Shown piece after piece: positions 36,618 through 57,876 of a stretch of DNA of 64,000 bases (position 1 is the first letter of the stretch; each line of letters opens with the position of its first letter). This DNA is from an uncultured Fibrobacterota bacterium (lineage in GTDB: Bacteria > Fibrobacterota > Chitinivibrionia > Chitinivibrionales > WJKA01). A model generated the notes under the pieces. It was not told the DNA's origin and did no database searches. It saw only the letters and a list, made by a program, of their open reading frames with translations. The DNA is taken from NCBI GenBank assembly GCA_964589825.1, contig CAZPUS010000011.1:18628-82627 (forward strand), given 5' to 3'. A program made the position numbers and the translations under genes.

Positions 36618-36749
36618 ACTATCCCGTTACTGCCGTCAGGCATTGAATGCCCTTGATTGGTTTTTGGATGTAGCGTATTTCTGTTATATATAGTACGTAT
36701 ACGCCATATAAAAATATTATTTTGCATCGGGTGGTATTGGTGAATTGGA

Positions 36750-36912
36750 CCTAAATTGAGTGATTTTGTTTGCGCAATTTACTGCAATCCGCACTACTCT
36801 TAATTTTCTCCAAAAGCATGAGACAACCAGCACACTTGCTCCATGGTTTTCGAGAACACAATAGCAGCACTGCTCACCGCAGCTTTCATCAATACAACCT
36901 CTCAATTTAGGC
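36750..36912 (+). mobile_element. TIR element copy J (inserted into the 3' end of a glycosyltransferase gene)
   Basis: CCTAAATTGAGTGATTTTGTTTGCGCAATTTACTGCAATCCGCAC...CTCACCGCAGCTTTCATCAATACAACCTCTCAATTTAGGC. It is flanked by a perfect direct repeat TGGA (36746-36749 and 36913-36916). The right TIR supplies the last codons and the stop of gene 36902..38059. Confidence 0.85.
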
Positions 36913-38059
36913 TGGATGTAATATCCCGGTACAGTTTTTCAAGCTGGATGCGGGCATTGAAATAATTACGTATCCTTTGGTATGCACGCGCCCCATCTTT
37001 GCGGATATATTCGGGATGAGCGGCATAGCGGCACAGCGCATCCGCAAAGCGCTGCGTGTCACCGTATGGCACCAGGATACCGGTTTGCGCGTGCTCGATG
37101 ATTTCGGTTACTCCCCCCGAATCAAACGCAATGGAAGGCAGCGCGCAGGCGCCGGCTTCCGCCACCACACGGCCGAACGGTTCGTTGCGTGACGCAATGC
37201 AGAACACATCATGGGAGCGCAGCGTGGCAGTTACTTCACTGGTAAACGGTTGGAGTATACAGCAATTCCCCAGTCCGTGTCTTTCAATTTGTTGTTGCAG
37301 CATTTGTCGGTATTGCTGTGGCCAATATGCCGTGTCGCCCACAATGGAGAGTGTGATACCGGTAGCCTCTGCGCATCGTGAATATGCGTCGGCGAATGCA
37401 TCGATAAGCAGATGGCAGCCCTTCCAGGGTACCACGCGGCCCAGATAAATAAACCTGACCGTGTTGTCGTTGCGCCGTTGTGGTGTGGTGGGCTCAGGCA
37501 GGTGTACGCCGTTGTATATTACCCGTGCATGATTCTGAAGCGGCGGTGCCAGGTTTTTTTTTACGTGCGTACTTATTGCGATAAGGTGACACCGCTCTCT
37601 ACGGGGGAACAAAAGCTCGTAAAGCCGTCTTACCCGCTGTCCGGGCTCGAAAAGCTCCCGCATATGAATAAAATACGTCGGTTTTTTGAGAACGCGGGCC
37701 GTGCACATAACGAGTATATGCGCTTTGGGCACGTTTGCATGAATGATATCAGGATGCAGACGTTGCATAGTCCTGCCCGCTGCGATGCAATAGCGAAAAT
37801 ACGAAAAAAGTGCAAAGAGACGCACCGGGTGCGTCAAAACCAAACCGTCTCTGCGCAGCCCTTCGATACTGCGGCTGCAGGGGATCACATGGCACTCGAT
37901 CCCAAGTTCGTGAGCCTGTTGTGTCAGCGCGCCTTTTTCGGACGTGATCAGATGAAGCCGGTGATTACCGGTTTCGGCAAAGTATCGAAGAATATCCAGC
38001 AGAGATTTTTCGGCTCCTCCGATTCGTCGTGCCCAGTGATTGACGAACACGAAAGTCAT
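36902..38059 (-). CDS. Glycosyltransferase, GT4 (GT-B fold)
   Basis: GT4 features are present (N-terminal GGAEKSLLDIL; C-terminal E-x7-E region PFGRVVAEAGACALPSIAFDSGGVTEII). I prefer the start at 38059 (MTFVFVNHW...), which makes an ATGA overlap with the upstream gene. The tracked start is 38074. Confidence 0.8.
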   Translation of the reverse strand: MTFVFVNHWARRIGGAEKSLLDILRYFAETGNHRLHLITSEKGALTQQAHELGIECHVIPCSRSIEGLRRDGLVLTHPVRLFALFSYFRYCIAAGRTMQRLHPDIIHANVPKAHILVMCTARVLKKPTYFIHMRELFEPGQRVRRLYELLFPRRERCHLIAISTHVKKNLAPPLQNHARVIYNGVHLPEPTTPQRRNDNTVRFIYLGRVVPWKGCHLLIDAFADAYSRCAEATGITLSIVGDTAYWPQQYRQMLQQQIERHGLGNCCILQPFTSEVTATLRSHDVFCIASRNEPFGRVVAEAGACALPSIAFDSGGVTEIIEHAQTGILVPYGDTQRFADALCRYAAHPEYIRKDGARAYQRIRNYFNARIQLEKLYRDITSSLN

Positions 38060-39162
38060 GCCGCGGTACTCCATAAAAAACGATTCAGAACACGCTCATA
38101 GCCGCATTTGACAAGTCGTGTGTACAATTCGCTGTCATGGTAGAGCCTTTGCAAATGTGCGGCACATTCTTCGCTGTTTCCGGCCGGAAAAACAAGCCCG
38201 CACTCGCCAACTGCATCGGGAAGACCACCGGCATTGCTTGCGATCACCGCCCTGCCGTGTGCCATGGCTTCAAGCGCGGTAATGCCGAAGCCTTCTGTTT
38301 CGTGTGAAGTCTCGATCGATGGGACCACACACACATGGGCCTGACGGTAAAGCTCTTCTTTTTCCTGTTCGTCTACCGACGTCTCGAGTGTAATACGCTC
38401 TCTGAAGCCGCTTTTTTCTATACGCTCGCGAAGCGGCTTTTCCAAGGGCCCCTCTCCGGCCAGAATCAGCCGCCATGGGATATCAAAGCGGCATAATTCG
38501 CAGGCCCTGATGAGGATGTTCTGCCCCTTTACTTTTACCAACCGGCCCAGGCAGAGAATAATATATGGATCGAATGCCATCGATTCGGATTGTATGCGTC
38601 CCGGATCCAGATCTCTGCGTTTTGTGAGTACTGCGGGGGGTATATCGAGACGGGGAGGAACGTGTCGTGTCGCCGTGTCTATCCCGAGCCGAAAGATTAG
38701 GGACTCGGTGTATGATCCGAGTACATAGATAAGCGAAGCCCGTTGCATTGCCCGACGAAGCAGGGCGGGGTATATACCCCATCGCCCTGCATGCAGCAGT
38801 TCGGTACCGTAGGTGTACACACGATACGATACAGGCATAAAAAAGGAACAGATGAATGGTATCAGAGCTGCATAGATATTTCCGCATTCCGTGACAGGCT
38901 GGGCATGCCGATGCCGGCGAATACAACGCATATACACACGCAAAAGAGAGGGAAGCGACAATTTTTTGTTAACTCCGGACGCAAAGTTGGAAACGAACCT
39001 TATCCGCGCCGAGTATGAACCCGGTTTTGCCGGGGGCGGTGTATATGCACAGCCGACAAGGACGATGTCATCGCTTTCATAGCGGTATTTTACTATATCC
39101 TTCAGATATGTCTGAATGCCACCTCGTTGTGGAGGGAAATCGAGTGTGAGAAGAATTTTCAT
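38056..39162 (-). CDS. Glycosyltransferase, GT4
   Basis: 368-aa ORF with a GT4 C-terminal motif (EGFGITALEAMAHGRAVIASNAGGLPDAV). Confidence 0.8.
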   Translation of the reverse strand: MKILLTLDFPPQRGGIQTYLKDIVKYRYESDDIVLVGCAYTPPPAKPGSYSARIRFVSNFASGVNKKLSLPSLLRVYMRCIRRHRHAQPVTECGNIYAALIPFICSFFMPVSYRVYTYGTELLHAGRWGIYPALLRRAMQRASLIYVLGSYTESLIFRLGIDTATRHVPPRLDIPPAVLTKRRDLDPGRIQSESMAFDPYIILCLGRLVKVKGQNILIRACELCRFDIPWRLILAGEGPLEKPLRERIEKSGFRERITLETSVDEQEKEELYRQAHVCVVPSIETSHETEGFGITALEAMAHGRAVIASNAGGLPDAVGECGLVFPAGNSEECAAHLQRLYHDSELYTRLVKCGYERVLNRFLWSTAA

Positions 39163-40668
39163 TCACCCATTCTCCCGTGAATTATCACTTAATTCAACAC
39201 CGTACGGTAGTGCGCCGGTTCGCTGATCGAGTGCATACCGCATAAGTACACCGTTAAAAAACCAGAAATAGAACGTGCCGGGAAAGTAGTGGATGTGCGT
39301 TCCGGTAATGCTTATCACAAAAAAGACGATATTCATCACGGCAATACCTTTTATCAGACTGCGGGAAAAAGAAGGTGTGAGCAGATGCGGCAGCTTAAGT
39401 CCGTAATAAATAAATGCGGCAAATATCGCGATAATGCCGAATGCACCGGGATAGCCGAATTCTGCCAGATAGGTAAAATAGAGCGAGTCGGTTTTCAGTG
39501 TTCCCAGGCCGCGGCCCAATATTGCATTTACCGGCGTTACCGAAAACCTGAGCATCTGATGCCATAGTTCCAATCGGGAAAGAAAGGAGTGTTCCTGAAA
39601 CGGATTGAGTATGGCGGAGCTTCTTTGTGCAACGAGTGAATTAATGTGGGCCTGGTTGAGTACTTGTTGACTCAGTACAGGGTCGCCGAGTAACCCCCCG
39701 GCGCTGTCCCCTGCGGTAAAACCCATAATTACGTTATAGCCGGCATAGAGAAGGGCTATAAGACAAATAATCAGGATCTTTCGGGGAAGGTTTTTCATGT
39801 TGACGATAAAGATCCATAGCAGCATACTTCCGATAAGTCCGATCCAGTTGGATCGTACCGAAGTGATAAGAATGCCGTAGGCCATGAGGGGGAAGCACAA
39901 CAGGAGAAGAGCTCGTATATTCTTTCGGGTCGCAGTTGTCCATAAGATACACGATCCGATGAGTGAAAGCTGTGCATAATCCGCAAGTACTACAGGTGCC
40001 TTGAAAAACGAAAAGGGGCGGATGATGTCTTCTACAAAAAGTGTCGAAAAATCGATGGTTGATAGCCAGATGTTTTCCGCTTCACTGTATCCTATGTACA
40101 GTTGTTTCATACCGTAAGCAACGGCAAGAGCCCCGATTATTACGGTAAGGCGCCACAGCCATTTCAGATGGATATGGTGGTAGGCGTACACCATCCCGAT
40201 GAAAAAGAAGAATACGGGCGGTCCGTAGAACTTGAATTTCATTATCGAGACAGATACGGAGCTTATATTAAAAGCGAATACCCGAAAAAGCATGTAGCCT
40301 GCATAGAACAGCATAAGACCGAGGCATAATCTGTACCCGGTTCCCTTTTGCCAGTAATTTTTGAAATGAAAAAAGAGTGCAGCAAGCATAAGGACCAGAA
40401 ACGATTCCTCGAAAACAAGAAGCGGATCATTGGTTGGGCGTGCATATACAAGGTAATACAGGCGCCTGATATGCCCGACAAACGGCATTCCGATAACCAG
40501 TATATACATGCCGATAACCGGACGCTGAAATATGGGCCAGGCGGCCAGCAGCACGAGTGCGCCCATAAACTGTGTACGCGTAGGGATATGAATGAGGTGA
40601 TACGCGATGAAATTGGCGGCTGCGATTATTCCGGCATATAGGAGAAATCGAATCAAAGCGTTTTTCAT
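39163..40668 (-). CDS. O-antigen ligase / Wzy-like polysaccharide polymerase family membrane protein
   Basis: 501-aa ORF with at least 10 hydrophobic helices and a large loop region typical of the Wzy_C/O-antigen-ligase family. It is embedded among glycosyltransferase genes. Confidence 0.65.
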   Translation of the reverse strand: MKNALIRFLLYAGIIAAANFIAYHLIHIPTRTQFMGALVLLAAWPIFQRPVIGMYILVIGMPFVGHIRRLYYLVYARPTNDPLLVFEESFLVLMLAALFFHFKNYWQKGTGYRLCLGLMLFYAGYMLFRVFAFNISSVSVSIMKFKFYGPPVFFFFIGMVYAYHHIHLKWLWRLTVIIGALAVAYGMKQLYIGYSEAENIWLSTIDFSTLFVEDIIRPFSFFKAPVVLADYAQLSLIGSCILWTTATRKNIRALLLLCFPLMAYGILITSVRSNWIGLIGSMLLWIFIVNMKNLPRKILIICLIALLYAGYNVIMGFTAGDSAGGLLGDPVLSQQVLNQAHINSLVAQRSSAILNPFQEHSFLSRLELWHQMLRFSVTPVNAILGRGLGTLKTDSLYFTYLAEFGYPGAFGIIAIFAAFIYYGLKLPHLLTPSFSRSLIKGIAVMNIVFFVISITGTHIHYFPGTFYFWFFNGVLMRYALDQRTGALPYGVELSDNSRENG

Positions 40669-41675
40669 GTATGACTACTCCTGCACATCCGTTTACGGGT
40701 ATTTTCTGCACGTTGCAGTTGTCGGTAGACCATTTCGTAGGCGTGAGCCGTGCGGGATATATCATATTGCGATACGGTCTCTGCTCCTGCAGCGGTCAGT
40801 CGTTGTCTCAGTGATGGCTGTGAAAGACAGTCGGTCAGCATACGCGAGAACTCTTCGACAGTGGTGGAAAGCAGTGCATTATGGTCGTGCGTGCAAAGCG
40901 CATCGATGCCCTGGTTGCGAAGTGCCACAACGGCAGTGTTGCTTGCCATCGCTTCGAGAACCGGTACCCCGAAGCCTTCCCAGGAGCTTGTCATACAATA
41001 TATCCACGATTCGTTCCAGATGTAAAGAAGGTGCGTCCGATTTACGTGTCCCCGGTACACCACATTGGGTGCATCGACCGCTTCCGGGCCGATTACGGTC
41101 AGGATGGCATCCGGGTGATGGGGCAGTATATGCTGCTGAAACAGATCGAGCAAAATATGGCCCTGTTTTCTGCTGTTGAGATCACCGAGAAACAGCAGAG
41201 AGGGATGCGGGGATTTTGACGCATGCGCTTCTTTAAATAGCGTTAAGGGAATTCCACAGGGTATTATATGCGATATCCCCGGTATAGGTCGGGCGCTTTT
41301 GTGGGATATACCGATATTTTTTCTGCGTAAAAGCGAGGACCATATTTCAAAAAGAAAAAACAAACCCTGGTAAAGAGCTCTTTGATAAGAGTGTGCAAAA
41401 AGTGCTTCGTAAAACGCGGAGCCGTAAAAAGTGCGTACCGAATGTGCGTATGAGAAACAGAAATAATCGTCTCCGTGAAAGTGTACAATATCGTAGGAAT
41501 CGGTCGCAATGCGCCGAAATACCAATGCAGGAAGAAACTTGGCAAAGAGCGGGGAGCCGCTGCCTTTGGCCTGGAACCGCACATGATTGTAAAGTGCATT
41601 ACCGGGACGCGGAGAAAAGGAGTAACACGTCACCACATGGCCTCGCTGCACAAGGGCATTGGCGAGCCAGTGCAC
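40665..41675 (-). CDS. Glycosyltransferase, GT4 (the true start is probably upstream; see findings)
   Basis: 336-aa tracked ORF with a GTG start and a GT4 C-terminal motif (SSWEGFGVPVLEAMASNTAVVALRNQG). The frame stays open upstream to 41759 and encodes the missing conserved N-terminus (IRIAFFSKQLPSDAPCGVSVQV-HWLANALVQRGH). Confidence 0.75.
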   Translation of the reverse strand: MHWLANALVQRGHVVTCYSFSPRPGNALYNHVRFQAKGSGSPLFAKFLPALVFRRIATDSYDIVHFHGDDYFCFSYAHSVRTFYGSAFYEALFAHSYQRALYQGLFFLFEIWSSLLRRKNIGISHKSARPIPGISHIIPCGIPLTLFKEAHASKSPHPSLLFLGDLNSRKQGHILLDLFQQHILPHHPDAILTVIGPEAVDAPNVVYRGHVNRTHLLYIWNESWIYCMTSSWEGFGVPVLEAMASNTAVVALRNQGIDALCTHDHNALLSTTVEEFSRMLTDCLSQPSLRQRLTAAGAETVSQYDISRTAHAYEMVYRQLQRAENTRKRMCRSSHT

Positions 41676-41877
41676 CTGTACGGAAACGCCACAGGGAGCA
41701 TCAGAAGGGAGTTGTTTGCTGAAAAATGCGATACGGATATCTGTTTTCCTCGTAACTATTTAAAAAAAGGATGAGATAACATTTGCAGTTGTTGTGCCAT
41801 ACACCTTTGTGTGCTATTGCATATAAAATCGGTAATCGCAATCCTGAACCCGGTTTGAAACCGGGCAGAATAGACCT

Positions 41878-42834
41878 TTAAAATATAACTATTTTCCGAA
41901 ATTTTATACTCCCGTATGCCAATGCAGCAAAAAGGAGAACTGGAGATACCAGATACGAAAGCCACTCTCGCCAGAAGCGTGATGTAGCGATGCAAAATGT
42001 GCCGGTACGCGATCTCGTGCACACGGTGATGTATGCGGCATCGGCTGCACACGCCACGACAGATAGGGCCGGGGACGAGATACTGATACCGGCGGCAATT
42101 ACATGTACCGCAGCAAGCAGCGCGATACTCGGTGGTATGGGTGAGCCGCGGTAGCGTCGATATCGTTGCGGGTGTTTTTTCATCAGTAAAGGATCGAACC
42201 GCCTGCGAAGGCAGTTTTTAAGGAGTTCCCACTTGTCATCCCTGAAGCGGTGTGCAACACGCATTGTCTCGCAAAAACCGATAGTGCCACCCGCGTCAAT
42301 TAGCCTGAGTGCAAGATCGATATCTTCGTGCTGAAAACGAAACCGTTCGTCGAACCCGCCGATATCACGCAACCACGTGCTTCGGTATACCATGTTGTTG
42401 GTTCGATACCCGCGCGATTCGAGCCGGGTATAGGCTTTGTAGTGTCCGCTGCAGTGAGTGGTTCCGTCAATGGACGTTTTCCCTTCCGCCCCGCACCAGT
42501 GTGGATGCAGCTGCATACAGTCAAGGCATTGCGGTGCCCAGTCCGGGGCTACCTGACAATCGTCATCCACGAAGGCGCAAAGGTTCGCATGTGCAGCCTC
42601 TATCCCTGCGTTTCGTTTTGCGGGGATAGAGGGAGAGGGCAGGTAGTGCCATTGAATATTGGGATAGTCATTGTACAACTCACGACTGTGGTAATCGGCT
42701 ACTACAATGCACTGACACCGGGATTTACCGCCCTGTACGGCCTTAAAACTCGTAAGGAGCGAATCGAGGCATGTGCGGATATAGCCGGGGCGGTGAGAGG
42801 CTACTATCACACTGAGAAGGTAGTTATCGCTCAT
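41878..42834 (-). CDS. Glycosyltransferase, GT2, with C-terminal transmembrane segments
   Basis: 318-aa ORF with a GT2 N-terminus (LSVIVASHRPGYI; the DxD-like FVDDDC) and two or three hydrophobic helices at the C-terminus. Confidence 0.75.
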   Translation of the reverse strand: MSDNYLLSVIVASHRPGYIRTCLDSLLTSFKAVQGGKSRCQCIVVADYHSRELYNDYPNIQWHYLPSPSIPAKRNAGIEAAHANLCAFVDDDCQVAPDWAPQCLDCMQLHPHWCGAEGKTSIDGTTHCSGHYKAYTRLESRGYRTNNMVYRSTWLRDIGGFDERFRFQHEDIDLALRLIDAGGTIGFCETMRVAHRFRDDKWELLKNCLRRRFDPLLMKKHPQRYRRYRGSPIPPSIALLAAVHVIAAGISISSPALSVVACAADAAYITVCTRSRTGTFCIATSRFWREWLSYLVSPVLLFAALAYGSIKFRKIVIF

Positions 42835-44938
42835 GAGGTGTATTCCCGAAGCAATATGGTTTATTCGGTTTATTATCCACAGTCAAGGTCGAAAGTGCGT
42901 GTTCCATTCGTGCGACCTGTCTGGACCACCGGTGCCGTTGTGCACTGTGCGCGGCGTGTGTGCCGATATGCTGGTATTCCCGGGCATGAGCGTATATTGA
43001 AGAGATAAACTTACTGTCGCATGTCACATCGTTTCCGTGAAGCAGAAACCCGTTGCAGCCATGACGTATGAACTCCCTGTGTGCACGTATGGGGCTTGCA
43101 AATACCATGCAGCCGTGTGTCATCGCTTCGAGCAGAGCAAGACTGTGTCCCCCTTCATAGCGTGATGCGGAAATCACGAAGGGGCAGTACGAATACCATT
43201 GCGACATCGAGTCCATTGATTCGTGTGCTATGGTGTAAACCGTTAACTTCGGGTGTGAGGTCAGGTTCGAAATGAGTGTTACACCGCGAGTGCCGACCCC
43301 TACGAGGTATAACGAAATGCGGGTGTCTGATCTTTGAGCCCATTCATTGCATATCGAATGCACATAGTCGATATTTTTTCGTTGTGAGTATTGCCCGACC
43401 GCAAGTACACGAAGCGGGACGTCACGACCAAAGCGGTGCACCGGTGTAACGGGTGTCACTCCGGTGGGTACATAGCGCAGTTTGTGTGCCTGTTGCGGAT
43501 AGTGGTATGTGAGCCAGCGCATGTCGGCCACTGTTTCACACACGCACAGATGGGCGGTGTGCAGATGCAGCCGAAGCAGTGGAAAACGAAGCAGCCTCGA
43601 TTTCCATGCCCCGGCATGCAGCAGGTTTTGAACCCGGGATACAGCTGCAACCTCTTCCCAGCCGTGATTGTGAAGAAGGCAGCGAGTCTGCAGCCGAAGC
43701 AGTCGTATCAAACATGCACACACGACACCGTCGGTCGATCTTGCGATAATCACATCCGGAACACGGGGACTGAGCAGCGCTGCCAGAAACCGTATCCCGC
43801 ACGTAAGGGCAAACACAAAATCATGGTGACCGCCTTTGTTGTAAATGTTTCGGGTTATATACCCCCGCATGGCCAGCCCTTTCATCTGTTGGTGCATGAC
43901 CCGGTGCACTCCCCCTTGTGACCCGGGAGGAATGGAAGCGAGATACCAGACACGTCTGATGTGGCGCAACTGCGTCGGAATACGCGATGCAAAACAGAGA
44001 GAAAGCAAATATTTCGGCAGCAGACACAATGCGGCGACCTGTTCGGTACACGCGGCGATACAGAGAGCGGCGGTATGCAGCGGATGTTTTACAAGCTGCG
44101 AGAGGCTTCTTCTTCGAAGCTGCGTAATACCGCTTTTTGCGATAAGAGCCATATGGGTCCGCAATGCGGTTGAATAATGGCGAATGCGGCGGTAGCCGGT
44201 CGGGTGAAGCCGGTAGATGTGGTACTCCGACGACAGAATTGAGTCGATTCTGGCAACAGAGTCACGAATATAGCGCAAAATCGCAACGTCTCGTGATCTG
44301 TGGCACACATGCAACAGAGGACGGAACACAATCGAGCCTCCGGCGAGCATTCGCAGGGCGAGTTCCTGATCCTCACCCGAGGGCTTTCGTGCATTAAACG
44401 AGGTATCGAACAATCCGCACTCCTTCAGCCTCTCTTTTCTGTAAACGATATTACAGCTCAGAAATGCACCGCCGGAGTGGACCTGGACCTCTCGATCCCA
44501 GATGCCGTCTCCCTGGGCCGAAACAGCTCCTTCGATACCCACCACCGACAGATTCGTATTCAGCGACGTTGTGTATTCGTGTACTCTGTCAAGCCATCGC
44601 GGCAGCAAAATGATGTCGTCATCGAGAAACGCGCACCATTGCCCGCGGCATGTGCGAATACCCGTGTTGCGGGCGGCAGCCGCTCCCCGTGGTATTGTGT
44701 GACGGATATATCGTATTCCGAATCTCGCGCATAACGACGCAATGTAACTCGAAGTTGCACGATGAGAATGATCATCGACCACGATTATTTCGGTATCCTG
44801 CGCAGAGGACATCTCCTGGCGGTAAAGCGCGTTCAGCAGGCAGGTAATAGATTCGGGGCGGTCTCTGGTCGGGACGATTACAGAGACGGGGAACCGATTC
44901 GCATGCATTGAATCAGGTGACGATACGTGTTGAGGCAT
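42824..44938 (-). CDS. Bifunctional glycosyltransferase (N-terminal GT2 fused to C-terminal GT4)
   Basis: 704-aa ORF. The N-terminal half has GT2 motifs (VSVIVPTRDRPES; IIVVDDHS; FLDDDI). The C-terminal half has GT4 motifs (SRYEGGHSLALLEAMTHGCMVFASP). An alternative Met start at 44908 would shorten the overlap with the upstream gene. Confidence 0.75.
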   Translation of the reverse strand: MPQHVSSPDSMHANRFPVSVIVPTRDRPESITCLLNALYRQEMSSAQDTEIIVVDDHSHRATSSYIASLCARFGIRYIRHTIPRGAAAARNTGIRTCRGQWCAFLDDDIILLPRWLDRVHEYTTSLNTNLSVVGIEGAVSAQGDGIWDREVQVHSGGAFLSCNIVYRKERLKECGLFDTSFNARKPSGEDQELALRMLAGGSIVFRPLLHVCHRSRDVAILRYIRDSVARIDSILSSEYHIYRLHPTGYRRIRHYSTALRTHMALIAKSGITQLRRRSLSQLVKHPLHTAALCIAACTEQVAALCLLPKYLLSLCFASRIPTQLRHIRRVWYLASIPPGSQGGVHRVMHQQMKGLAMRGYITRNIYNKGGHHDFVFALTCGIRFLAALLSPRVPDVIIARSTDGVVCACLIRLLRLQTRCLLHNHGWEEVAAVSRVQNLLHAGAWKSRLLRFPLLRLHLHTAHLCVCETVADMRWLTYHYPQQAHKLRYVPTGVTPVTPVHRFGRDVPLRVLAVGQYSQRKNIDYVHSICNEWAQRSDTRISLYLVGVGTRGVTLISNLTSHPKLTVYTIAHESMDSMSQWYSYCPFVISASRYEGGHSLALLEAMTHGCMVFASPIRAHREFIRHGCNGFLLHGNDVTCDSKFISSIYAHAREYQHIGTHAAHSAQRHRWSRQVARMEHALSTLTVDNKPNKPYCFGNTPHER

Positions 44939-45987
44939 GTAGTCGGACTGCTCCTGCTGATGTGTTCGAAATGACGGATTCCTTCGAGAGCCTTACGAGA
45001 CCAGTAGCTGGTATGTACGGCACAATCCTTAATTCCATCCGAAATAGAAGCTAAGGATGAGGGGTTGACAAAACGGGCACAATCACCGCATGTTTCCCGC
45101 AGCGGGGGTATATCAGAAACCACAGCCGGACATCCCTGCTGCATTGCTTCCAGGGGCGGCAGCCCGAGGCCTTCATGCAGTGAGCAGAAAAGCAGACCGC
45201 TGCACTGCTGAAGATGTGCAGTGTAGTGCTCCATGGTATCGTATTCGATATTAACGCCGGTGGGCATCGATGCGTACGTCTTGATATCGTCGTTTATCGA
45301 ATCGCCTAGGATGCAGAGAGAGTAGTCGGGGTACGACTCGGCGAAATGCTGAAATGCACGCACTACGCTCGCGGTGTTTTTGTTAGGACCACCCGCCAGC
45401 GTGATAAAATATTTTTTTCTCGCAGTATCGGGGGATGAAGCGGCATGCACCGAAAGGGGAGGGTAAAGAAGTTGTGTACGATTGTGTACCCGGGGAAAGC
45501 GCTTTTCTACCTGTTGCTGCGTATGCCCGGATACACAAAATATTCGGTCGAATGTAGAAAGTATGTGCGTCTGTACACGCCAGTAAAGGCTGCGGCGTAC
45601 TGCCTCGGTATGCGGGATATAGGGCCAGTTTTCTACACCGAGATCGTGTACCGTGGCGCATACACGGCAGGGATGAATGAATCCTGATCCCATTCTAAAA
45701 ATCGGACCGAGGCTTACCCAGTAATGGAGTACATCGATGCGGTAGCGAAGGATGAGCCACGGTATTATGATACCGTCGACTTTCCAGTCGCCGCGTGAAC
45801 AATACGGAATATAGTGAATACGATCATCGGCCAGCAACGGGGCAATGCGTCGTGAATCTCCCCACACGAAAAGGGTGAAATCGCGTGGGAGTTTACACAG
45901 GGCGCGGCAGAGCTGCCGCGCATAAGTGCCCACACCGCGTATGCCGTAACGATGCGAAAAAAGTCGTAAATCCCACAGCACTCTCAT
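44878..45987 (-). CDS. Glycosyltransferase, GT4
   Basis: It carries a GT4 C-terminal motif (SLHEGLGLPPLEAMQQGCPAVVSDIPPLRE). The start at 45987 (MRVLWDL...) forms an ATGA overlap with the upstream gene. The tracked start is 45996. Confidence 0.8.
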   Translation of the reverse strand: MRVLWDLRLFSHRYGIRGVGTYARQLCRALCKLPRDFTLFVWGDSRRIAPLLADDRIHYIPYCSRGDWKVDGIIIPWLILRYRIDVLHYWVSLGPIFRMGSGFIHPCRVCATVHDLGVENWPYIPHTEAVRRSLYWRVQTHILSTFDRIFCVSGHTQQQVEKRFPRVHNRTQLLYPPLSVHAASSPDTARKKYFITLAGGPNKNTASVVRAFQHFAESYPDYSLCILGDSINDDIKTYASMPTGVNIEYDTMEHYTAHLQQCSGLLFCSLHEGLGLPPLEAMQQGCPAVVSDIPPLRETCGDCARFVNPSSLASISDGIKDCAVHTSYWSRKALEGIRHFEHISRSSPTTCLNTYRHLIQCMRIGSPSL

Positions 45988-47108
45988 ACGTTGCATATCT
46001 CCCTGTAGTGAGCAAAAATCCGCCGAGCCGATTCCCGAAAAGACCAGTTGGCGCGGTAGGCGGTCATGGCACGTGCCAGACGTCGCTGCAGCCCGCGTGT
46101 CTCGATTATCCGCTGAATGTGCCGTCGCACCTCTTCCGGATCAAAGGAGGACAGCTCCATAACCGGCTCGCGAGAGCGGATCTCCCGAGTCAGGTCGATA
46201 TCGGTGGCGACGATATACCGTCGGGCACCAATAAGAGTGGCAAGACTGCTGGAGCAGGACCGGGACGAAAAGAGGGCCAGAGCGATATCCAGTGAAGTGA
46301 GAAGCGTGGTACGATGTGCATCGTCGACCCAGTGAGTGATGGTAAAGCGGTCACTCATACCATATCGCTCGAGTTGTTCACACAGACGGGAGTAAAGGCC
46401 GTGGTCACAGCCGCGGCGAATAGTGCCGATCCAGAAAAAATGCCAGGGAATTTCGAGCCGTGAAAGTGTTTCCAGAAGAAGTGTATAGTCGTACTGGGGA
46501 TTGATGAATCCGATCGTCCCGAGAAGAAGCGGAGATTGCTCGGTAAAGTTTTTGTGGCTGAGTCGCGGCGGCTGGGGTGCCGCAACATCGGGAACCGGCA
46601 TGGGAATGTGGTTTATTTTCGACGTATCGACGCCTTTATGGCCAAGCAAATCGATATGATATCGCGCATGCACAAAAAGCCTGTGTGCAAAAAAATCATG
46701 TTTCAGGTGACGGCGATACGCCGTTGCTGCAGGGTGACGTATATCGTAGACGGCTTTTTTGGCAATTCGAAGCGGTAGCGGCCCTTCGATTTGTTCGCGC
46801 GGAAAGACGCCCGGCAGTTGTTCATATACCTCGTGAAGCGTGACACATACCGGTACGGTAAGACGACGGCACAAAAAGCGGTACCGGTCTCCCCGGTGAG
46901 AGAGCCACTGTGACGTTTCGTACTGAATATGAACGCAGTCACACGCATTGATGCGTGCGGCACAGGCCCGCGGGGAGGTGCTGCACTGCCGGGGCGTGAA
47001 CCGTTCGATTCGGCACAGGGGATGTAACTGCTGCAGATATCTCTCCGAATAGATCGAGATTCCGCAGCGTGCGCTATCGGGTGCGATCCATGCGATTTTT
47101 GGCGTCAT
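45984..47108 (-). CDS. Glycosyltransferase-like protein (GT-B/GT4-like, divergent)
   Basis: 374-aa ORF in the glycosyltransferase run. The architecture resembles GT4, but the canonical E-x7-E is not obvious by eye. Confidence 0.55.
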   Translation of the reverse strand: MTPKIAWIAPDSARCGISIYSERYLQQLHPLCRIERFTPRQCSTSPRACAARINACDCVHIQYETSQWLSHRGDRYRFLCRRLTVPVCVTLHEVYEQLPGVFPREQIEGPLPLRIAKKAVYDIRHPAATAYRRHLKHDFFAHRLFVHARYHIDLLGHKGVDTSKINHIPMPVPDVAAPQPPRLSHKNFTEQSPLLLGTIGFINPQYDYTLLLETLSRLEIPWHFFWIGTIRRGCDHGLYSRLCEQLERYGMSDRFTITHWVDDAHRTTLLTSLDIALALFSSRSCSSSLATLIGARRYIVATDIDLTREIRSREPVMELSSFDPEEVRRHIQRIIETRGLQRRLARAMTAYRANWSFRESARRIFAHYREICNV

Positions 47109-47149
47109 AGCGCATAGGTTCCTGTTGGACTCACGGTACGTATTTGTAA

Positions 47150-47312
47150 CCTGAATAGAGCGATTGTGTGTGCGGGATGTGCTGCAATCCGCACTACTCT
47201 TATATTTTCAAAAATACTGAAGACAACCGACAGGGTTGCCCCATGGTTTTTGAGGACACAATAGCGGTACGCCTCACCGCAGCTTTCATCAAAACAACCG
47301 CTCAGTTCAATT
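47150..47312 (+). mobile_element. TIR element copy K (inside the polysaccharide gene array)
   Basis: CCTGAATAGAGCGATTGTGTGTGCGGGATGTGCTGCAATCCGCACTACTCTTATATTTT...CCTCACCGCAGCTTTCATCAAAACAACCGCTCAGTTCAATT. The flanking 4-mers are GTAA/GAAA (3 of 4 identical). Confidence 0.8.
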
Positions 47313-47406
47313 GAAAATCAGACATTGGTATATCCTGTAAGGGAACCGGAAACAGATTAACCGGAATCCTGCAGTAGCCAACCGCCAACACAGTACCGGC
47401 AGGTAT

Positions 47407-48279
47407 TTATGTATGAGCGGTTTCACGTGAACGAGGGCTGCGGCACTGGGCAAAGCAGGACCCGCCTCCCTGTATGCCGAAGTACAGTTCGATTCGGTTG
47501 GTACACACATTAACGATCCGAAGCAGCAATCCCGCTCCGGGGACTCGTTTGACAATGGCAAAGCAGCTGGTGAGTGCCGCCAACAATCCACATCCGGCCC
47601 TGGCAAAACAGATCGAATATTTTTCGGGATACCCCAGAAGCCATCCAACAATGCCTGCAGGGCTGAAAAAAGCGTCTACATGAAATCGACGTGCGAATTC
47701 GGTATACAATTCATGAGCGTTTTGTAGACACACGTGTCCGTCAAGCTGAGCGATGCAGTCATTGCCTGTTTTTTGTATAAGCATCCCGGAGGGCCACTGA
47801 TGCCGATAATCGCCACATTCACTATGAAAAAAAAGTGATGCACCGGGTATACAGGTGCGATTCAATTCGTCAAGGACTCTGCTGCGGGTGGAAATATGCC
47901 CAAGCGTGTCGACTGTATATTGCGCATCGAACACCCCTGCCTTAAATGGCAACGCACACGCATCGGCACATACGGGGTCAACTCCTTCCTGCGACTGTTG
48001 TATGGTGCGAAGCGCGGGAAAGGAAATGTCGAGGGTCACCAACCGCACCGGATAGCCGGTACGAACCCACTGTGCATATGCTCCGTTGCCGCATCCGCAA
48101 TCGAGTACAACGGCGCCCGGCGGAACCCGGTCCATCATACGGGCTATACCGTCGTGTTTAAACGAAAAAAAACGAATCGTTCTGCGTATCAGCGGATTGC
48201 GGGTACGCACACGGGTGGTATTCCATGCCCGGGAGGTGTGTTTGTTGTCGTTGAACGTGCTGTAATAGGTGTACGCCAT
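47407..48279 (-). CDS. Class I SAM-dependent methyltransferase
   Basis: 290-aa ORF with SAM-binding motif I (VVLDCGCGNGAYA) and a post-I acidic residue (LDIS). The C-terminal third is hydrophobic. Confidence 0.7.
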   Translation of the reverse strand: MAYTYYSTFNDNKHTSRAWNTTRVRTRNPLIRRTIRFFSFKHDGIARMMDRVPPGAVVLDCGCGNGAYAQWVRTGYPVRLVTLDISFPALRTIQQSQEGVDPVCADACALPFKAGVFDAQYTVDTLGHISTRSRVLDELNRTCIPGASLFFHSECGDYRHQWPSGMLIQKTGNDCIAQLDGHVCLQNAHELYTEFARRFHVDAFFSPAGIVGWLLGYPEKYSICFARAGCGLLAALTSCFAIVKRVPGAGLLLRIVNVCTNRIELYFGIQGGGSCFAQCRSPRSRETAHT

Positions 48280-48293
48280 GATGGTGCGGCAAT

Positions 48294-50480
48294 TCAGTCG
48301 GTTTTCGATTTATAGTAGTGGTAATAGTACTTGTAGTAGCCATATGACGAGTAGCGGTGCGAAAGGTCAATGTCGTTGAGTACTGCTCCGACAAGCCGGG
48401 CCCCCACATTGGTGAGATTTTTTATCGCATCGATGGCAGCTTCCCTGTTCGTGTGTCCCGATTTGAGTACGAGCAGAATGCCGTCGGTTCTTGTACTGAG
48501 CAGTGCCCCGTCGGTAATGGCCAGAAGCGGAGGAGAGTCAAATACTATCATATCGTACACTGTTTTCAATTGGTCTATAAGACGTACCATTTTCTGCGAT
48601 CCGATCAGTTCTGCCGGATTGGGGGTAAACCTTCCGGCCGTCATGATGAAAAGATTGCCACAGGGTGTTTCCCGGACCGAGTCCTCGATTGGTCTGGTAT
48701 CGCTGAACAATTCGGTGAATCCGGGCTCCCGCTTGCTTTTGAAAATGTGGTGAAGCACCGGACGACGAAGGTCGGTGTCGACAAGAAGTGTCTTCCTGCC
48801 CATGTCCGCATAGGAGACGGCGAGGTTTATAGCAGTGAGCGATTTTCCCGCCGATGCGCCGGCGGAGCTTATTACCAGAGTCTGCAAGGGGTTGTCGGGC
48901 GATACAAAGGAGAGGTTCGTACGCAGGGAACGATACGCCTCTCTTACAATCGAATCGTCGTCCGAAAATGAAAGCAGGTCGCCCGGATAACTCGTTACGG
49001 AAAGATTCCCCTTTCCCGACGCGGACTGGCGTTTGATTTCGATATTCTTTTTCTTGTTATATGTGACATGAGGAATAGTGCCCAGTACAGGTGTATTACA
49101 GTAGCGTTCCACGTCGGTATTCGATTTTATCGTTGTGTCGTTGAGCTCGATCACGAACGCGAGACCGGTCCCGAGTCCGAGTCCGAGTAGTATACTGAGT
49201 ATATAGTATTGTTTTTCATTTTTCGGGATGGGTCTGTTCGGCATGCGGGCAAGATCGACCACTTTTATGCCGGTCGATCCGGATGCGCTCATCAGTCGTG
49301 CTTCCTCCGCCTTGTTAATGAGGAAATTGTAGATGTTTTCGTAAATATTTTTTGTACGTTTGAGTTTTTGTAGCTTGAGGGTATTGTTAATTATGTCAGG
49401 ATTTCCCTTTTTGTATTCCTCTATGGCCTGCTTGTATGATTCGAGGCGCTGGCGAAAAAGCGAGAGTTCGTGTTTTTTGTTCAGTACCGATTCCCGAAGC
49501 TCCTGCCATCGTTTTACCAGTTTTGGATCGACCGGCTCCGTACGCTTTTCGCGCTGATAACGCAGCAGCTGATCCTCTATCTGTTCGATCTGTCGCGACA
49601 GAGTGGATATCCGCGACACTCTGATACCGAGCTCTTCCAGCCGCATTTTTTTCTGTTCCAGGCTTCGCAGCTTCGAGCGTAATTCGAGATAGTCTTCGGA
49701 CTGGACTTTCTTTTTCGGGATGAGCTGTTGCTCCAGTTTGGCAAGTTGCTGCTCTTCCGCGGAAAGCTCCGCCTCCTTGACACCTTTCTTTGCAAGCTCC
49801 TGTGCGTAAGTTTCCTTGAGTTTTTGCAGCTCGGGCGGCGTACCGGAGGAGATGTCGCCCCCGAGTTTCTCCTGAAACATGCGATATCGCTCTTCCGCAT
49901 CCTTGAGCTTTTCCCGGATAAGCTCGAGCTGTTTGTTAATTTCGACTATTTTTCTTCTGTTTTCTTCGGTAACTACCTCCCGGCATTGCGTGATAAACAT
50001 TTCGGTGCCGATACTTGCAATGTGGTACGCGAGTTTTTTCGATTTCGCCCGTACATTAAACCGGTAAAAGGAGTTGTAGGAAGTGTTTCGCAGTGATATG
50101 GCGTTGCGAATTATATCGATTGCCTGCTCATGCGTTGCATTGGGATGGGCCTTGCGTACCATATCCATACCGATACTGTCCAGTATCATCTCCGACACGG
50201 TGCGGCTGTTGAGTATCCCTTTGTAAAAACTCAGCGATCTGCCGCCGTAGTTCATTGCCTTGCTGATGAGCTGGTTTTTTTCTTCTATAACGATTCTGGC
50301 ATATGATTCGTATTCGTCTTCAAGCCGGGAGACGTAAAACACAGTAAAGCCGACGATCGAAAGCAGGGAAATAATGACAATCCATTTTCTCCGCATGAGT
50401 ATGGAATAATAATCTCTCAGCCGTGCGCCGGTGGTATGAAAGGAGCCGTATCCCCCAGATCCATGTGGTGTCGCATTCAT
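48294..50480 (-). CDS. wzc: Polysaccharide co-polymerase / tyrosine autokinase (Wzc/GumC-like)
   Basis: 728-aa ORF with an N-terminal TM segment, a long coiled-coil periplasmic region and a second TM segment. The cytoplasmic kinase has Walker A (SSAGASAGKS), Walker A' (LLVDTDLRRP), Walker B (MIVFDSPP) and a C-terminal Tyr cluster (YSSYGYYKYYYHYYK). Confidence 0.85.
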   Translation of the reverse strand: MNATPHGSGGYGSFHTTGARLRDYYSILMRRKWIVIISLLSIVGFTVFYVSRLEDEYESYARIVIEEKNQLISKAMNYGGRSLSFYKGILNSRTVSEMILDSIGMDMVRKAHPNATHEQAIDIIRNAISLRNTSYNSFYRFNVRAKSKKLAYHIASIGTEMFITQCREVVTEENRRKIVEINKQLELIREKLKDAEERYRMFQEKLGGDISSGTPPELQKLKETYAQELAKKGVKEAELSAEEQQLAKLEQQLIPKKKVQSEDYLELRSKLRSLEQKKMRLEELGIRVSRISTLSRQIEQIEDQLLRYQREKRTEPVDPKLVKRWQELRESVLNKKHELSLFRQRLESYKQAIEEYKKGNPDIINNTLKLQKLKRTKNIYENIYNFLINKAEEARLMSASGSTGIKVVDLARMPNRPIPKNEKQYYILSILLGLGLGTGLAFVIELNDTTIKSNTDVERYCNTPVLGTIPHVTYNKKKNIEIKRQSASGKGNLSVTSYPGDLLSFSDDDSIVREAYRSLRTNLSFVSPDNPLQTLVISSAGASAGKSLTAINLAVSYADMGRKTLLVDTDLRRPVLHHIFKSKREPGFTELFSDTRPIEDSVRETPCGNLFIMTAGRFTPNPAELIGSQKMVRLIDQLKTVYDMIVFDSPPLLAITDGALLSTRTDGILLVLKSGHTNREAAIDAIKNLTNVGARLVGAVLNDIDLSHRYSSYGYYKYYYHYYKSKTD

Positions 50481-51373
50481 CAGTTAAACACTCCGCTGAG
50501 GTTCTGTACCGTTACTATAAAAAGAAGAGCATTGTTCATTATGGAGAGCAGGGTTTTCCAGTCGAACCATTTTGAGTAGATGATAATGACGTCACCACGG
50601 CTGACATGGGGCATTTCATCCATATTACCCTGGTCTATATATTTGCGCACGTTTATTATCTCTTCGCTGGTACGGTCGTTTTGTTGGGAAAGCCGCCGTA
50701 CACGTGAAAGATCGGCTTTCTGGGACGGGCCGCCCGCCATGTATATTACTTCAAATATATTGAGTGAATCCTCGAGTTCGAAGAAACCCGGTTTGGCTAC
50801 CGCACCTATTACCTTTACCTTTGCCGCGCGTCCCTTGGAAAGCAGCAGCACTTTATCCCTGTCACGAAGCAACGGCATTTCGTTAATATCGCCTTTGTGG
50901 AGGAAATTACGCATATTGAAAAAGACGGTCTGCAGGGTGCTGTCACCGCGAATCACTTTAATGCGTGTGTAATCCGCCTGTTGCGTGCCACCGCCGGCAG
51001 CGGCGATCGCTTCCTGCACCGTGACGCCCTTGTAGGTCTGCAGTGGACCGGGTTGTGCTATTTGACCCAGCATAGTAACGGTGATCTGCGGGTTTTCCTC
51101 GATCGCGACAGATACCAGCGGGTTTGGAAGATGCTTTGCGAGTTGGAAGGTGATCTCTCTTCGCAATTCCGCGGTCGTGATATCGACTACGTATTCGCCG
51201 GCAAGCAGGGGATAATTGATGGTTCCGTCATCCGAGACAGTGTAGGTCCCCGAGTATTCGGGATGTGAGGCAACTTCTATGGAGATGACATCGCCGCTTG
51301 ATATTATCGCGGCATCGAGTCCGGTGACTGCAGCACAGAACAGAATGAGTATAGAGATAGAGAACATGCGCAT
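50480..51373 (-). CDS. wza: Polysaccharide export protein (Wza-like, Poly_export plus SLBB domains)
   Basis: 297-aa ORF with a signal peptide, PES-like and SLBB-type beta-grasp repeats (GDVISIEV...; VTMLGQIAQPGPLQ; VKVIGAVAKPGFFEL). It overlaps wzc by 1 nt. Confidence 0.75.
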   Translation of the reverse strand: MRMFSISILILFCAAVTGLDAAIISSGDVISIEVASHPEYSGTYTVSDDGTINYPLLAGEYVVDITTAELRREITFQLAKHLPNPLVSVAIEENPQITVTMLGQIAQPGPLQTYKGVTVQEAIAAAGGGTQQADYTRIKVIRGDSTLQTVFFNMRNFLHKGDINEMPLLRDRDKVLLLSKGRAAKVKVIGAVAKPGFFELEDSLNIFEVIYMAGGPSQKADLSRVRRLSQQNDRTSEEIINVRKYIDQGNMDEMPHVSRGDVIIIYSKWFDWKTLLSIMNNALLFIVTVQNLSGVFN

Positions 51374-51384
51374 ATGTATAACCT

Positions 51385-52413
51385 TTACTGGGGTTTGAAT
51401 ACAAACGGATAGGTAACCGTTGTTTCGCCTTGTTCAACGGAATCGAATCGCCACATTTTAATTTTTCGCACTATTTCGCGTACCAGTGCTTCATTACCGG
51501 TGGTGTTTTCGAGTACCTGTACCTCAGTGACCGTGCCCGATGCCGCGATAATGAAACGTACCGTTATTTTACCCGAAAGGTCGGGGACACGTTTCAGATA
51601 TTTTTCGTAACTCATCTGAAGGCTGAGCTTGTGTTTTTCCACCAGCTTGTTTATCGCCCGGATACTGCGGTTGGCACTCGTTTTTCCCGCGCCTTCTATA
51701 CTTTTGGGCCTGCTGAATTCAACGCCTCCTTTTTTCCCCAGGGCCGCGGTCTTGGTGGGTCCGATATCCGCCACGAGATCATCGATGCTCTCACGGTGGT
51801 CGATATCGATATCCTTACTTTTTACCAGTTTCGACTGCATGATATCTTCTTTTCTGGTTTGTTTAAGGCCGGTTACGTTATTAAGCGCCCGGTCAAGATC
51901 CTGTGAGGCGTCTTCCTCCTCACCGAGTATGTTGGCCACGGAGGGTCCTTTTGCGGTTTTTCCCGATGCGGTGAGCATTCCCAGCACTCCGACCGTACGT
52001 ACTTTCTTTTCCACCTGCCGGGTACGCTGCTGCACCCTTGTTTCCGCCTCCTTTGTAGAAATTTGTTTTTTGGGCTCCTGACTCTTTTCTGGTTCACTTT
52101 TTTCCTGCGGTTTCGATTCGGCAGTGGATGTTTTTTTCTCCGCAGGCGTTTTATCCTTGGGGATGGGTTTGTCAACAATAAGCTTTGCCATACGATTGGG
52201 AATCTCTTCAAGCCGTTTTACTTCATTCTGTTTTTTAACGTCTTGTTTAGCGAGCCAGTATGCACCTGCACCATGGAGTATGAGGGAAAAAACCACGATA
52301 CATACAATCCGTAACTCGGTGATGCGTAACGGACTCCCCTTTAGTTTCTTTAACTCCTGCGGCGTGATACGGCTCGAGGAGGCAAATACAACTGTGTTAC
52401 CAGATCGCTGCAC
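51385..52413 (-). CDS. TonB C-terminal-domain protein (AgmX/TonB-like energy transducer)
   Basis: It has a single TM helix (IVCIVVFSLILHGAGAYWL), a Lys/Glu/Pro-rich linker, a VGVLGML motif and a C-terminal TonB_C-like fold (GKITVRFIIAASGTVTEVQVLENTTGNEALVREIVRKIKMWRF). I prefer the GTG at 52413, which is preceded by AAGGAAA 8 nt upstream. The tracked ORF extends to 52494. Confidence 0.7.
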   Translation of the reverse strand: MQRSGNTVVFASSSRITPQELKKLKGSPLRITELRIVCIVVFSLILHGAGAYWLAKQDVKKQNEVKRLEEIPNRMAKLIVDKPIPKDKTPAEKKTSTAESKPQEKSEPEKSQEPKKQISTKEAETRVQQRTRQVEKKVRTVGVLGMLTASGKTAKGPSVANILGEEEDASQDLDRALNNVTGLKQTRKEDIMQSKLVKSKDIDIDHRESIDDLVADIGPTKTAALGKKGGVEFSRPKSIEGAGKTSANRSIRAINKLVEKHKLSLQMSYEKYLKRVPDLSGKITVRFIIAASGTVTEVQVLENTTGNEALVREIVRKIKMWRFDSVEQGETTVTYPFVFKPQ

Positions 52414-52620
52414 ACCCGGTTTCCTTATTCTGTAAAGTAGTATAACGGTAGATTGTAACGATTTTGAAGCCAAAAGACGGAGGTGTATGCACACATGCTT
52501 CTCTGCCGCCGGTTCGGCTCAATTGTATCGTAGGATATGACGAGTAGAGTGTCACGGTTATCATTCGTCGGGTACGGCAGCGCATGTCTGCGGGTACTGC
52601 ATTGTCGTTCATGGCAGAGG

Positions 52621-54293: not shown

Positions 54294-54426
54294 TGTGATT
54301 CCTCCTTTATATGGTGAAGTACGTATGATAATTCATATGATGATGCGTGTACATGTGTATTATTATATCGTTATGGCGTCACGATGTCAAAACAATCGTG
54401 CAGTTTAAGTCCGTGGAAATGCCGAA

Positions 54427-57824: not shown

Positions 57825-57876
57825 ACGAAAGCGGTTTTCATAATTATGCGATATCACGGGGTGCGATGATGTTATA

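Follow-up and report, generated by a model that had tools for sequence, protein, structure and literature searches.

The array of genes described here was found in a stretch of 64,000 nucleotides (hereafter, the window) that spans positions 18,628–82,627 of contig CAZPUS010000011.1 (C11); 567 nt of the contig remain past the window end. The contig belongs to genome G000, from a member of the Chitinivibrionales (Fibrobacterota), whose assembly has 3.1 Mb in 85 contigs and is 94% complete. In the list of open reading frames (ORFs) of the window, the array runs unbroken on the minus strand from approx. 63.9 kb down to 36.9 kb, and it unites genes that resemble those of the proton-driven Agl/Glt/Nfs machines of Myxococcus with genes for the synthesis and Wza-Wzc export of a polysaccharide. 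Its order is as follows: two outer-membrane proteins (OMP1 and OMP2), two giant tetratricopeptide repeat (TPR) proteins, a protein of 115 residues, ExbB, two ExbD proteins, a TonB-like protein, Wza, Wzc, a methyltransferase, and a block of glycosyltransferase genes that includes a Wzy-like polymerase. The coordinates, strand and domain content given in the original prediction agree with the ORF list and with the Pfam and NCBIfam profile searches of the window ORFs, from which all the domain assignments below were obtained. The remainder of the window consists of housekeeping genes; since the flanks of the array are unrelated housekeeping genes that vary from genome to genome, the unit is considered to run from OMP1 to the last glycosyltransferase gene.

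The two halves of the array meet at the junction between the TonB-like gene and wza. The ATG of wza lies 11 nt past the stop of the TonB-like gene, as had been predicted, and neither a terminator nor a promoter was found in this 11-nt spacer. Downstream, wza and wzc overlap by 1 nt (ATGA), and the remaining junctions measure 14, −13, −61, −11, −4, 0 and −19 nt. Three sizeable gaps had been named, and all three are real, i.e., 54294–54426 (133 nt), 47109–47406 (298 nt) and 41676–41877 (202 nt); a fourth one, which had not been listed, separates the second exbD gene from the TonB-like gene (52495–52620, 126 nt, or approx. 207 nt if the start that gives 342 residues in the protein database holds). 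The spacing is therefore operon-like, and it suggests that the motor genes and wza-wzc are co-transcribed.

The motor is encoded upstream of this junction. An ExbB/TolQ/AglR-type proton channel protein (53658..54293, on the minus strand as are all the array genes described below) matched PF01618 with 92 bits and is 47–77% identical in 80 related loci, and two ExbD/TolR-type proteins (53133..53642 and 52621..53184) matched PF02472. One TolQ/ExbB-type and two TolR/ExbD-type proteins encoded in one cluster form the Agl core motor set, and this is the set found here; none of the Agl-specific models was matched, and the NCBIfam searches gave only generic TolQ, TolR, ExbB and ExbD models, each under its cut-off. 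The motor genes are followed by the gene of a GltG-like, TonB-type force transducer (51385..52494), predicted to have one transmembrane helix, a linker and a C-terminal AgmX/PglI domain, which is matched by TonB_C and by NF033768 (84.7 bits against a cut-off of 40) and is also present in distant relatives. Against the full-length GltG equivalog, this protein scored 92 bits, far from the cut-off of 650; it aligns only to approx. positions 326–650 of the GltG model, and the cytoplasmic FHA region is absent. A second GltG-like TonB-type gene, divergent in sequence (26% identity), is present in the source genome at G000:C7:4601-5608, and relatives that lack the array also hold such divergent copies (26–34%), hence this order has another system of this type. 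In many relatives (e.g., locus L150, positions 9158–9484) a gene for a STAS/anti-sigma-antagonist protein of approx. 108 residues is located between the exbD genes; its carriers include Chitinispirillum alkaliphilum and distant Fibrobacterota. In the family of the source genome the STAS gene is absent and the exbD genes overlap (window 52621–53642).

Downstream of the junction, Wza (50480..51373, 297 residues) contains a Poly_export domain (PF02563) and two SLBB domains; thus, the PES motif, the SLBB domains and the membrane-spanning element that characterize outer-membrane polysaccharide export (OPX) proteins are all present. Its AlphaFold model, obtained with 25 sequences, has a mean predicted local distance difference test score (pLDDT) of 91 and shows D1, two beta-grasp domains (D2 and D3) and a 25-residue C-terminal membrane helix (272–296). 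The top Foldseek matches of this model were E. coli Wza structures 9r64 and 2j58, with E-values of approx. 5e-19 over 294–301 aligned columns. The sequence of the C-terminal helix is kept in the orthologues and is found in a diverged form in distant relatives. From the model, the protein is assigned to Class 1 of the exporters as Saidi et al. (PMC9603273) define them, and with a C-terminal helix of its own it would need no barrel partner such as Schwabe et al. described (PMC9601211). A short exporter that uses a barrel of the array as a pore was considered and rejected, because the helix is confidently modelled and conserved and because OMP2 does not resemble a polysaccharide porin; the combination of a helix-less OPX protein of at most 280 residues with an 18-stranded AlgE/PgaA-like barrel was not found here. 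No canonical lipobox could be read from the Wza sequence. The next gene encodes Wzc (48294..50480), with Wzz, GNVR and AAA_31 domains and a score of 187.5 bits with TIGR01007 (cut-off 108); the three Walker motifs (A, A' and B) can be read in its sequence, as can a cluster of tyrosines at the C-terminus, and Wzc is classified as a polysaccharide co-polymerase of type 2a (PCP-2a) with a tyrosine autokinase.

The Wzy-like polymerase (39163..40668, 501 residues) has at least nine hydrophobic segments and, according to hydropathy, is the sole polytopic membrane protein of the polysaccharide block. Its match to Wzy_C reached 22.8 bits with hmmscan, below the cut-off of 31.7, and 33.1 bits when summed, a match that does not distinguish polymerase from ligase chemistry; the protein has no sequence relative in the PDB. 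Orthologues that are 40–46% identical occur in relatives, and a homologue with 27% identity is encoded in the corresponding operon of a closed Fibrobacteria chromosome. This last finding speaks against the possibility, raised with the original prediction, that this protein could be a WaaL-type ligase foreign to the pathway.

The conservation of the array was evaluated by whole-genome searches in 40 genomes of the same order, and regions of approx. 40 kb were fetched for 10 of these. Full-length orthologues of Wza (48–57% identical) are present in 21 of the 40 relatives; orthologues of the TonB-like protein (44–52% identical) were found in 20 of these 21 genomes and in none of the 19 that lack Wza, and the single Wza-positive relative without it is a 77%-complete genome. 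An independent distribution of the two blocks, which would have separated them, is contradicted by this co-occurrence, and likewise by the split systems described below, in which the motor stays with wza-wzc. The presence of the array varies within one genus (two of six genomes) and within several families, which indicates that it was gained or lost independently several times. Nine of the ten fetched relatives show the complete array in collinear order, from OMP1 to the last glycosyltransferase, and it is also carried by the cultured species C. alkaliphilum, where the spacer between the called TonB_C and Poly_export genes is 12 nt. With the array kept at 33–77% amino acid identity in relatives, the comparison of sequences indicates that the arrangement exceeds chance.

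A deeper comparison was based on an ExbB alignment scan that gave 80 loci, onto which the window proteins were mapped; these loci fall into three tiers. In the Chitinivibrionales tier, the TonB-like gene is followed by wza in 24 of the 26 loci with room downstream, the exceptions being relative G003 and one Raymondbacteria locus. The second tier (Fibrobacteria/Fibrobacterota, ExbB 47–61% identical) shows the order ExbB-ExbD-ExbD-TonB-like-Wza-Wzc in all 18 loci, with no TPR or outer-membrane genes upstream of the motor. A homologue of OMP2 is encoded elsewhere in the five second-tier genomes that were tested, and in the three regions fetched it forms part of an OMP1-OMP2-TPR-TPR block; in the closed chromosome OY970309.1 this block lies 350 kb from the motor operon. 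The genes that follow wzc in this tier vary: loci L096 and L099 have a small priming enzyme of the Bac_transf family and then two GT4 genes, followed in L099 by Wzx; L105 has Wzx directly after wzc; and in OY970309.1 Wzx comes first, then glycosyltransferases, a small priming enzyme, further glycosyltransferases and the Wzy homologue. Therefore, in the split systems it is a complete Wzx/Wzy pathway that accompanies the motor and the transducer. In the third tier, formed by Fermentibacteria, Aegiribacteria, Sabulitectum and KSB1-type loci, TPR and motor genes are present without Wza. Over 41 related loci the median distance from the TonB-like stop to the wza start is approx. 16 nt, and this junction persists down to 25–35% identity of the TonB-like protein, while the flanking genes and the glycosyltransferase content change. 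In one locus (L063) an ORF of 773 residues (G028:C20:1546-3867) follows the TonB-like gene, and wza and the genes after it are on another contig; this ORF may be an insertion that broke the assembly.

It had been noted that a Wzx flippase and a priming transferase, both needed in a Wzy-dependent pathway, are not seen in the window, and indeed no MOP-family or Bac_transf gene was detected there by the profile searches. Outside the window, the genome has six to seven Polysacc_synt genes and three Bac_transf genes (contigs C15, C22 and C24). A search with the L105 Wzx gave exactly one homologue in the source genome, C21:42668-44494 (34% over 510 residues, E-value 2e-89), whose orthologues (47–57% identical) were found in every one of the 21 array-positive relatives and in no array-negative one (0 of 19). 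This gene is the last of a three-gene operon, formed by two GT4 genes (397 and 407 residues) and Wzx, with unrelated genes on both sides; relatives keep the GT4-GT4-Wzx order, and in L096 and L099 these genes form one run with wzc. Given the shared distribution, the conserved order and the contiguity with wzc, this satellite operon was assigned to the pathway, and its Wzx is the probable flippase of the array. With the satellite operon, the pathway has up to ten glycosyltransferase domains. The search of the rest of the genome suggested along with the prediction thus provided a flippase candidate, by phyletic profile and gene order, and the apparent lack of a flippase corresponds to a dispersal of genes and not to a new type of pathway. 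In relative G001 (91% complete, 550 contigs), fragments of a Wzy orthologue were observed on contigs C417 and C156, with no orthologue of Wza, of the TonB-like protein or of the C21-type Wzx in that genome; this pattern could represent a decaying remnant or an assembly gap.

As for the priming step, the small enzyme encoded within the operon of distant relatives is 49% identical to the C22 copy of the source genome, 45% to the C15 copy and 40% to the C24 copy. The C15 transferase was excluded because its orthologues are missing from five array-positive genomes. Orthologues of C24 are near-universal and not specific to array-positive genomes, and those of C22 occur in 21 of 21 array-positive and also in nine of 19 array-negative relatives; from these comparisons, C22:42547-43935 is the best candidate for the priming transferase. 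A search for PF00953 (WecA/MraY) gave no match in the genome; this result is uninformative, as the assembly, 94% complete, lacks even MraY, and the absence of such an essential region means that absences in this genome have to be read with care. Other polysaccharide loci were observed on C14 (OPX, Wzy_C, Wzx and Wzz), C15 (the priming transferase, a Wzy_C-like protein and Wzx, with no OPX), C3 (an OPX and a 1086-residue Wzz protein) and C9 (an OPX of 839 residues).

The first four genes of the array and the small gene before exbB complete the motor module. OMP1 (62719..63897) is an exported beta-rich protein of 392 residues, known here from its ORF, whose orthologues also head the array in relatives, where 0.7–0.9 kb of intergenic DNA precede them. 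OMP2 (61455..62714, 419 residues) is predicted to be an outer-membrane beta-barrel with a charged, helical C-terminal tail; its AlphaFold model (pLDDT 82.7) shows a barrel of approx. 14–16 strands followed by the C-terminal helices. The best folds in the PDB were FapF and OmpG (Foldseek, E-value 1e-5, TM-score to the target 0.6–0.65), and the top 50 Foldseek matches included no polysaccharide porin such as AlgE or PgaA, and no PopA structure; a PopA-like fold, considered in view of the literature on FSU_2404 of Fibrobacter succinogenes (see below), did not appear among these matches but may still apply. Both giant proteins matched TPR families in Pfam and NCBIfam. The first (57877..61395, 1172 residues) is kept in relatives; the second (54771..58064) has up to 1097 residues, given that its real start is probably further downstream. 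The last 300 residues or so of the second protein have no Pfam family, and a weak, partial match to an NCBIfam rhamnosidase model (E-value 1e-5) gives a hint of a sugar-binding domain; a sugar-binding sandwich at this C-terminus was not retained, having no support from Pfam. The small conserved protein of 115 residues (54427..54774) has one hydrophobic segment.

The polysaccharide block was predicted to contain seven glycosyltransferase genes with eight domains, including a GT2-GT4 fusion, and this was borne out by Pfam, with one gene below the threshold. A putative S-adenosylmethionine-dependent methyltransferase (47407..48279; Methyltransf_11 and Methyltransf_25), which also follows wzc in most relatives, is located at the beginning. 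It precedes GTa (45984..47108), a glycosyltransferase-like protein with a weak GT1 signal (Glyco_trans_1_4, E-value 5e-4, below the cut-off) that is kept in relatives and has no NCBIfam match at all; no NCBIfam equivalog was found for any glycosyltransferase of the array. Then follow GTb (44878..45996, GT4), the 704-residue GT2::GT4 fusion (42824..44938), a GT2 enzyme with two C-terminal hydrophobic segments (41878..42834) and GTc (40665..41744, GT4), and after the Wzy-like gene, GTd (38056..39162, GT4) and GTe (36902..38074, GT4), the last conserved gene of the array, beyond which the flanks vary among relatives. The 3' end of GTe abuts a repeat (copy J, 36749–36907) that has a second, directly repeated copy of 159 nt, 78% identical, at 47149..47307 (copy K), inside which terminator-like hairpins were detected. 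Copy K lies in the gap 47109–47406, the site where relatives hold an extra GT2 gene (approx. 290 residues) between the methyltransferase and GTa; this gene has been lost in the source genome without a remnant in the window. Moreover, most relatives have a separate GT2-DUF2334 protein (580–598 residues) and a separate GT4, and in the source genome the deacetylase-like DUF2334 part has been lost and GT2 and GT4 are joined in frame. The homology of GTc to its relatives reaches 41744, 23 codons before the first start of its ORF (a GTG at 41675), and there is no ATG, GTG or TTG at 41744, so that GTc has either a non-canonical start or an N-terminal truncation. Downstream of the array, a gene at 34383–36617 (minus strand) encodes a protein with TPRs and an SLT lytic transglycosylase domain that resembles a flagellar-assembly transglycosylase of spirochaetes (NF047373, 197 bits, under the cut-off of 234). 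Its adjacency to the array is not conserved, and it was ruled out as a member given that the flanks differ among relatives.

With respect to transcription signals, the number of promoter-like and terminator-like sites across the region is near the shuffled expectation. The gap that precedes exbB contains a sigma-70-type promoter-like sequence (TTGACA-17-TATAAT, 12 of 12 positions; 54362..54390, minus strand). Of 44 related loci, 25 have a site upstream of exbB that agrees in at least 10 of 12 positions, and such agreement is reached by 2.6% of random windows and, after shuffling of the upstream regions, by 4.2%. The position and conservation of this site fit an internal promoter that could drive exbB through the tonB-like gene, wza and wzc.

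From these results, it is proposed with moderate confidence that the locus is the main part of one Wzx/Wzy pathway for a conserved heteropolysaccharide (a capsule or an exopolysaccharide), and that this pathway is coupled to a proton-driven machine of the Agl/Glt/Nfs type, genetically and, in all likelihood, also in function. According to this proposal, a polyprenyl-phosphate primer would be made by a transferase encoded elsewhere, C22:42547-43935 being the best candidate, and would be lengthened by the glycosyltransferases and the methyltransferase of the array and by the two GT4 enzymes of the C21 satellite operon. The unit would be flipped by the satellite Wzx (C21:42668-44494), polymerised by the Wzy-like protein (39163–40668) under the control of Wzc, and the polymer exported by the Class-1 Wza, which would span the outer membrane with its own C-terminal helix. 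The coupled machine would consist of the ExbB-ExbD-ExbD channel, the GltG-like TonB-type transducer, the two giant TPR proteins and the two outer-membrane barrels. It is likely that the motor and the pathway act together; by analogy with Agl-Nfs and Exo, the motor may apply force to the emerging polymer or to the export complex, for its ordered deposition, anchoring or extrusion.

Several observations weigh against this proposal. In G003 the system is divided over three contigs that hold the core, wza-wzc, and the glycosyltransferase/Wzy block, which means that the linkage is not obligate, although all the modules are kept; the Raymondbacteria locus and the KSB1-type loci have the core and no Wza nearby. 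The profiles of C24 and C22 do not single out the priming transferase, the copy in the source genome is eroded (a GT2 gene and the DUF2334 part lost, and a glycosyltransferase without a canonical start), and the compared genomes are related and therefore are not independent samples. Finally, in F. succinogenes S85 the TonB gene is followed by FSU_2404, a PopA-like outer-membrane protein (PMC8092306, PMC12228718).

The separation of modules in G003, in the Raymondbacteria locus and in the KSB1-type loci, together with the fact that all the evidence is comparative and comes from related genomes, would also be expected if only synteny had been inherited, i.e., if the Ton-like module and the polysaccharide pathway had unrelated jobs and merely shared a neighbourhood or a transcript. 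This explanation seems improbable to us, since the junction survives to a TonB-like identity of 25–35% while its surroundings turn over, the presence and absence of both halves co-vary through several independent transitions, one of them within a genus, and G003 keeps the three modules despite their dispersal. The S85 cluster leads to another explanation, namely that ExbB-ExbD-TonB is a conventional TonB system for nutrient uptake that lies beside an exopolysaccharide locus by chance. The cluster FSU_2396-2404 is highly expressed (PMC8092306), and the FSU_2400-2403 proteins rise on cellulose and were interpreted by Raut et al. as an uptake system, i.e., a cellodextrin importer (PMC6851124), next to the PopA-like FSU_2404 (PMC12228718). 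For the array described here, such a role is very hard to credit: no TonB-dependent receptor, with its plug and 22-stranded barrel, is encoded in it according to Pfam; OMP1 and OMP2 have only about 400 residues each and match no Pfam family, and the OMP2 model has no plug domain; the C-terminal domain of the transducer is of the AgmX/PglI (GltG) type; and the transducer co-occurs with Wza and not with any transporter. The array also offers a different interpretation of the ExbB/ExbD/TonB cluster of F. succinogenes, hitherto considered a cellodextrin importer.

A further possibility keeps the coupling and changes its point of action, so that the motor and the TonB-like protein would act directly on Wza-Wzc, gating or powering extrusion, and not through the TPR and outer-membrane proteins at the cell surface. 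The split systems of other Fibrobacterota, where the motor and the TonB-like gene stay with wza-wzc and not with the TPR/OMP block, are in favour of this idea, as are the short distance between the TonB-like gene and wza (11 nt here and a median of approx. 16 nt in relatives) and the promoter-like site, which starts a sub-unit that goes from the motor to wzc. However, an E. coli-type Wza-Wzc works without such a motor; the five split genomes keep a homologue of OMP2, with the TPR/OMP block beside it in the three regions fetched; in G003 it is with the TPR and OMP genes that the motor remains, apart from wza-wzc; and in the structural model of M. xanthus, the TonB-like domain of GltG binds the TPR protein GltD (PMC11761067). 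On balance, direct action on Wza-Wzc is considered unlikely, and the reading in which the TPR and outer-membrane proteins form part of the coupled machine is preferred.

Polysaccharide export by Wza-Wzc is not known to require an energy source at the outer membrane, and what the Glt core complex does outside Myxococcus has stood as a question since 2011; the conserved operon offers a testable candidate for its ancestral job, and given that the phylum has a cultured carrier, C. alkaliphilum, both questions are directly testable. As a tentative and rather doubtful extension, the ancestral job of the Agl/Glt core complex may have been to convey proton-motive force into the secretion or deposition of a Wza/Wzc-exported polysaccharide; the Fibrobacterota would have kept the single-operon state, and gliding and spore-coat assembly in Myxococcus would be later specialisations. 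Nothing relevant was found in a literature search that combined ExbD, TonB, Wza and Wzc; the papers it gave were unrelated ones on genomes. The Glt core complex (aglRQS with gltC, D, E and G) was described as present in Fibrobacter, and its function was left open (Luciano et al. 2011, PMC3169522); neither polysaccharide nor Wza occurs in the main text of that paper. The array resembles this complex in being a single-cluster module of motor, TonB-like and TPR genes outside the Myxococcales; at the level of individual Glt proteins, the likeness is that of the GltG-type domain. It differs from the complex as described in that it runs on into a Wzx/Wzy pathway and begins with two barrel genes.

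The closest functional parallel is found in M. xanthus, where the Exo spore coat, exported through Wza, depends on Agl-Nfs for its assembly (Wartel et al. 2013, PMC3858216). Both systems combine a TolQ/TolR-type channel, a GltG/NfsG-type transducer, large TPR proteins and outer-membrane barrels with a Wza/Wzc-exported polysaccharide, here known from genes alone. In contrast with the single array of the window, the motor, nfs and exo genes of Myxococcus are in separate loci; ExoA, of Class 3, is short and has a barrel as its partner, and the array Wza is of Class 1 with its own helix; the cytoplasmic FHA region of GltG is absent from the array transducer; and the array has no known link with gliding or sporulation. 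In M. xanthus the AglR5QS-GltG complex was modelled as similar to TolQ5R2-TolA (PMC11761067), and the genes of the polysaccharide pathways of this bacterium are likewise dispersed (PMC9603273). Another similarity concerns the G4 cluster of Glt paralogues of M. xanthus, which includes the gltD homologue MXAN_1922 (PMC3169522); judging from locus-tag numbers, this Glt-like module is close to the BPS exporter barrel MXAN_1916 (PMC9603273). The BPS exporter, however, is formed by a short Class-3 OPX protein together with a barrel of 18 strands, unlike the Wza of the array, and belongs to a different phylum. Lastly, the system shares with the group 1 capsule and colanic acid systems of E. coli the Class-1 Wza fold, a PCP-2a tyrosine kinase with its tyrosine cluster and, probably, a Wzx of the MOP family; the putative Wzy-type polymerase and the candidate priming enzyme of the Bac_transf family would extend the likeness. 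It departs from them in several respects: the array showed no Wzb phosphatase, a canonical lipobox is missing from Wza, the genes for Wzx (with two GT4 genes) and for the candidate priming enzyme are not linked to the array, and the operon also encodes a proton motor. Compared with these systems, the polysaccharide half is a Wzx/Wzy-dependent pathway of the ordinary kind whose genes are dispersed, and what is unusual is its conserved operonic union with a Glt-type motor.

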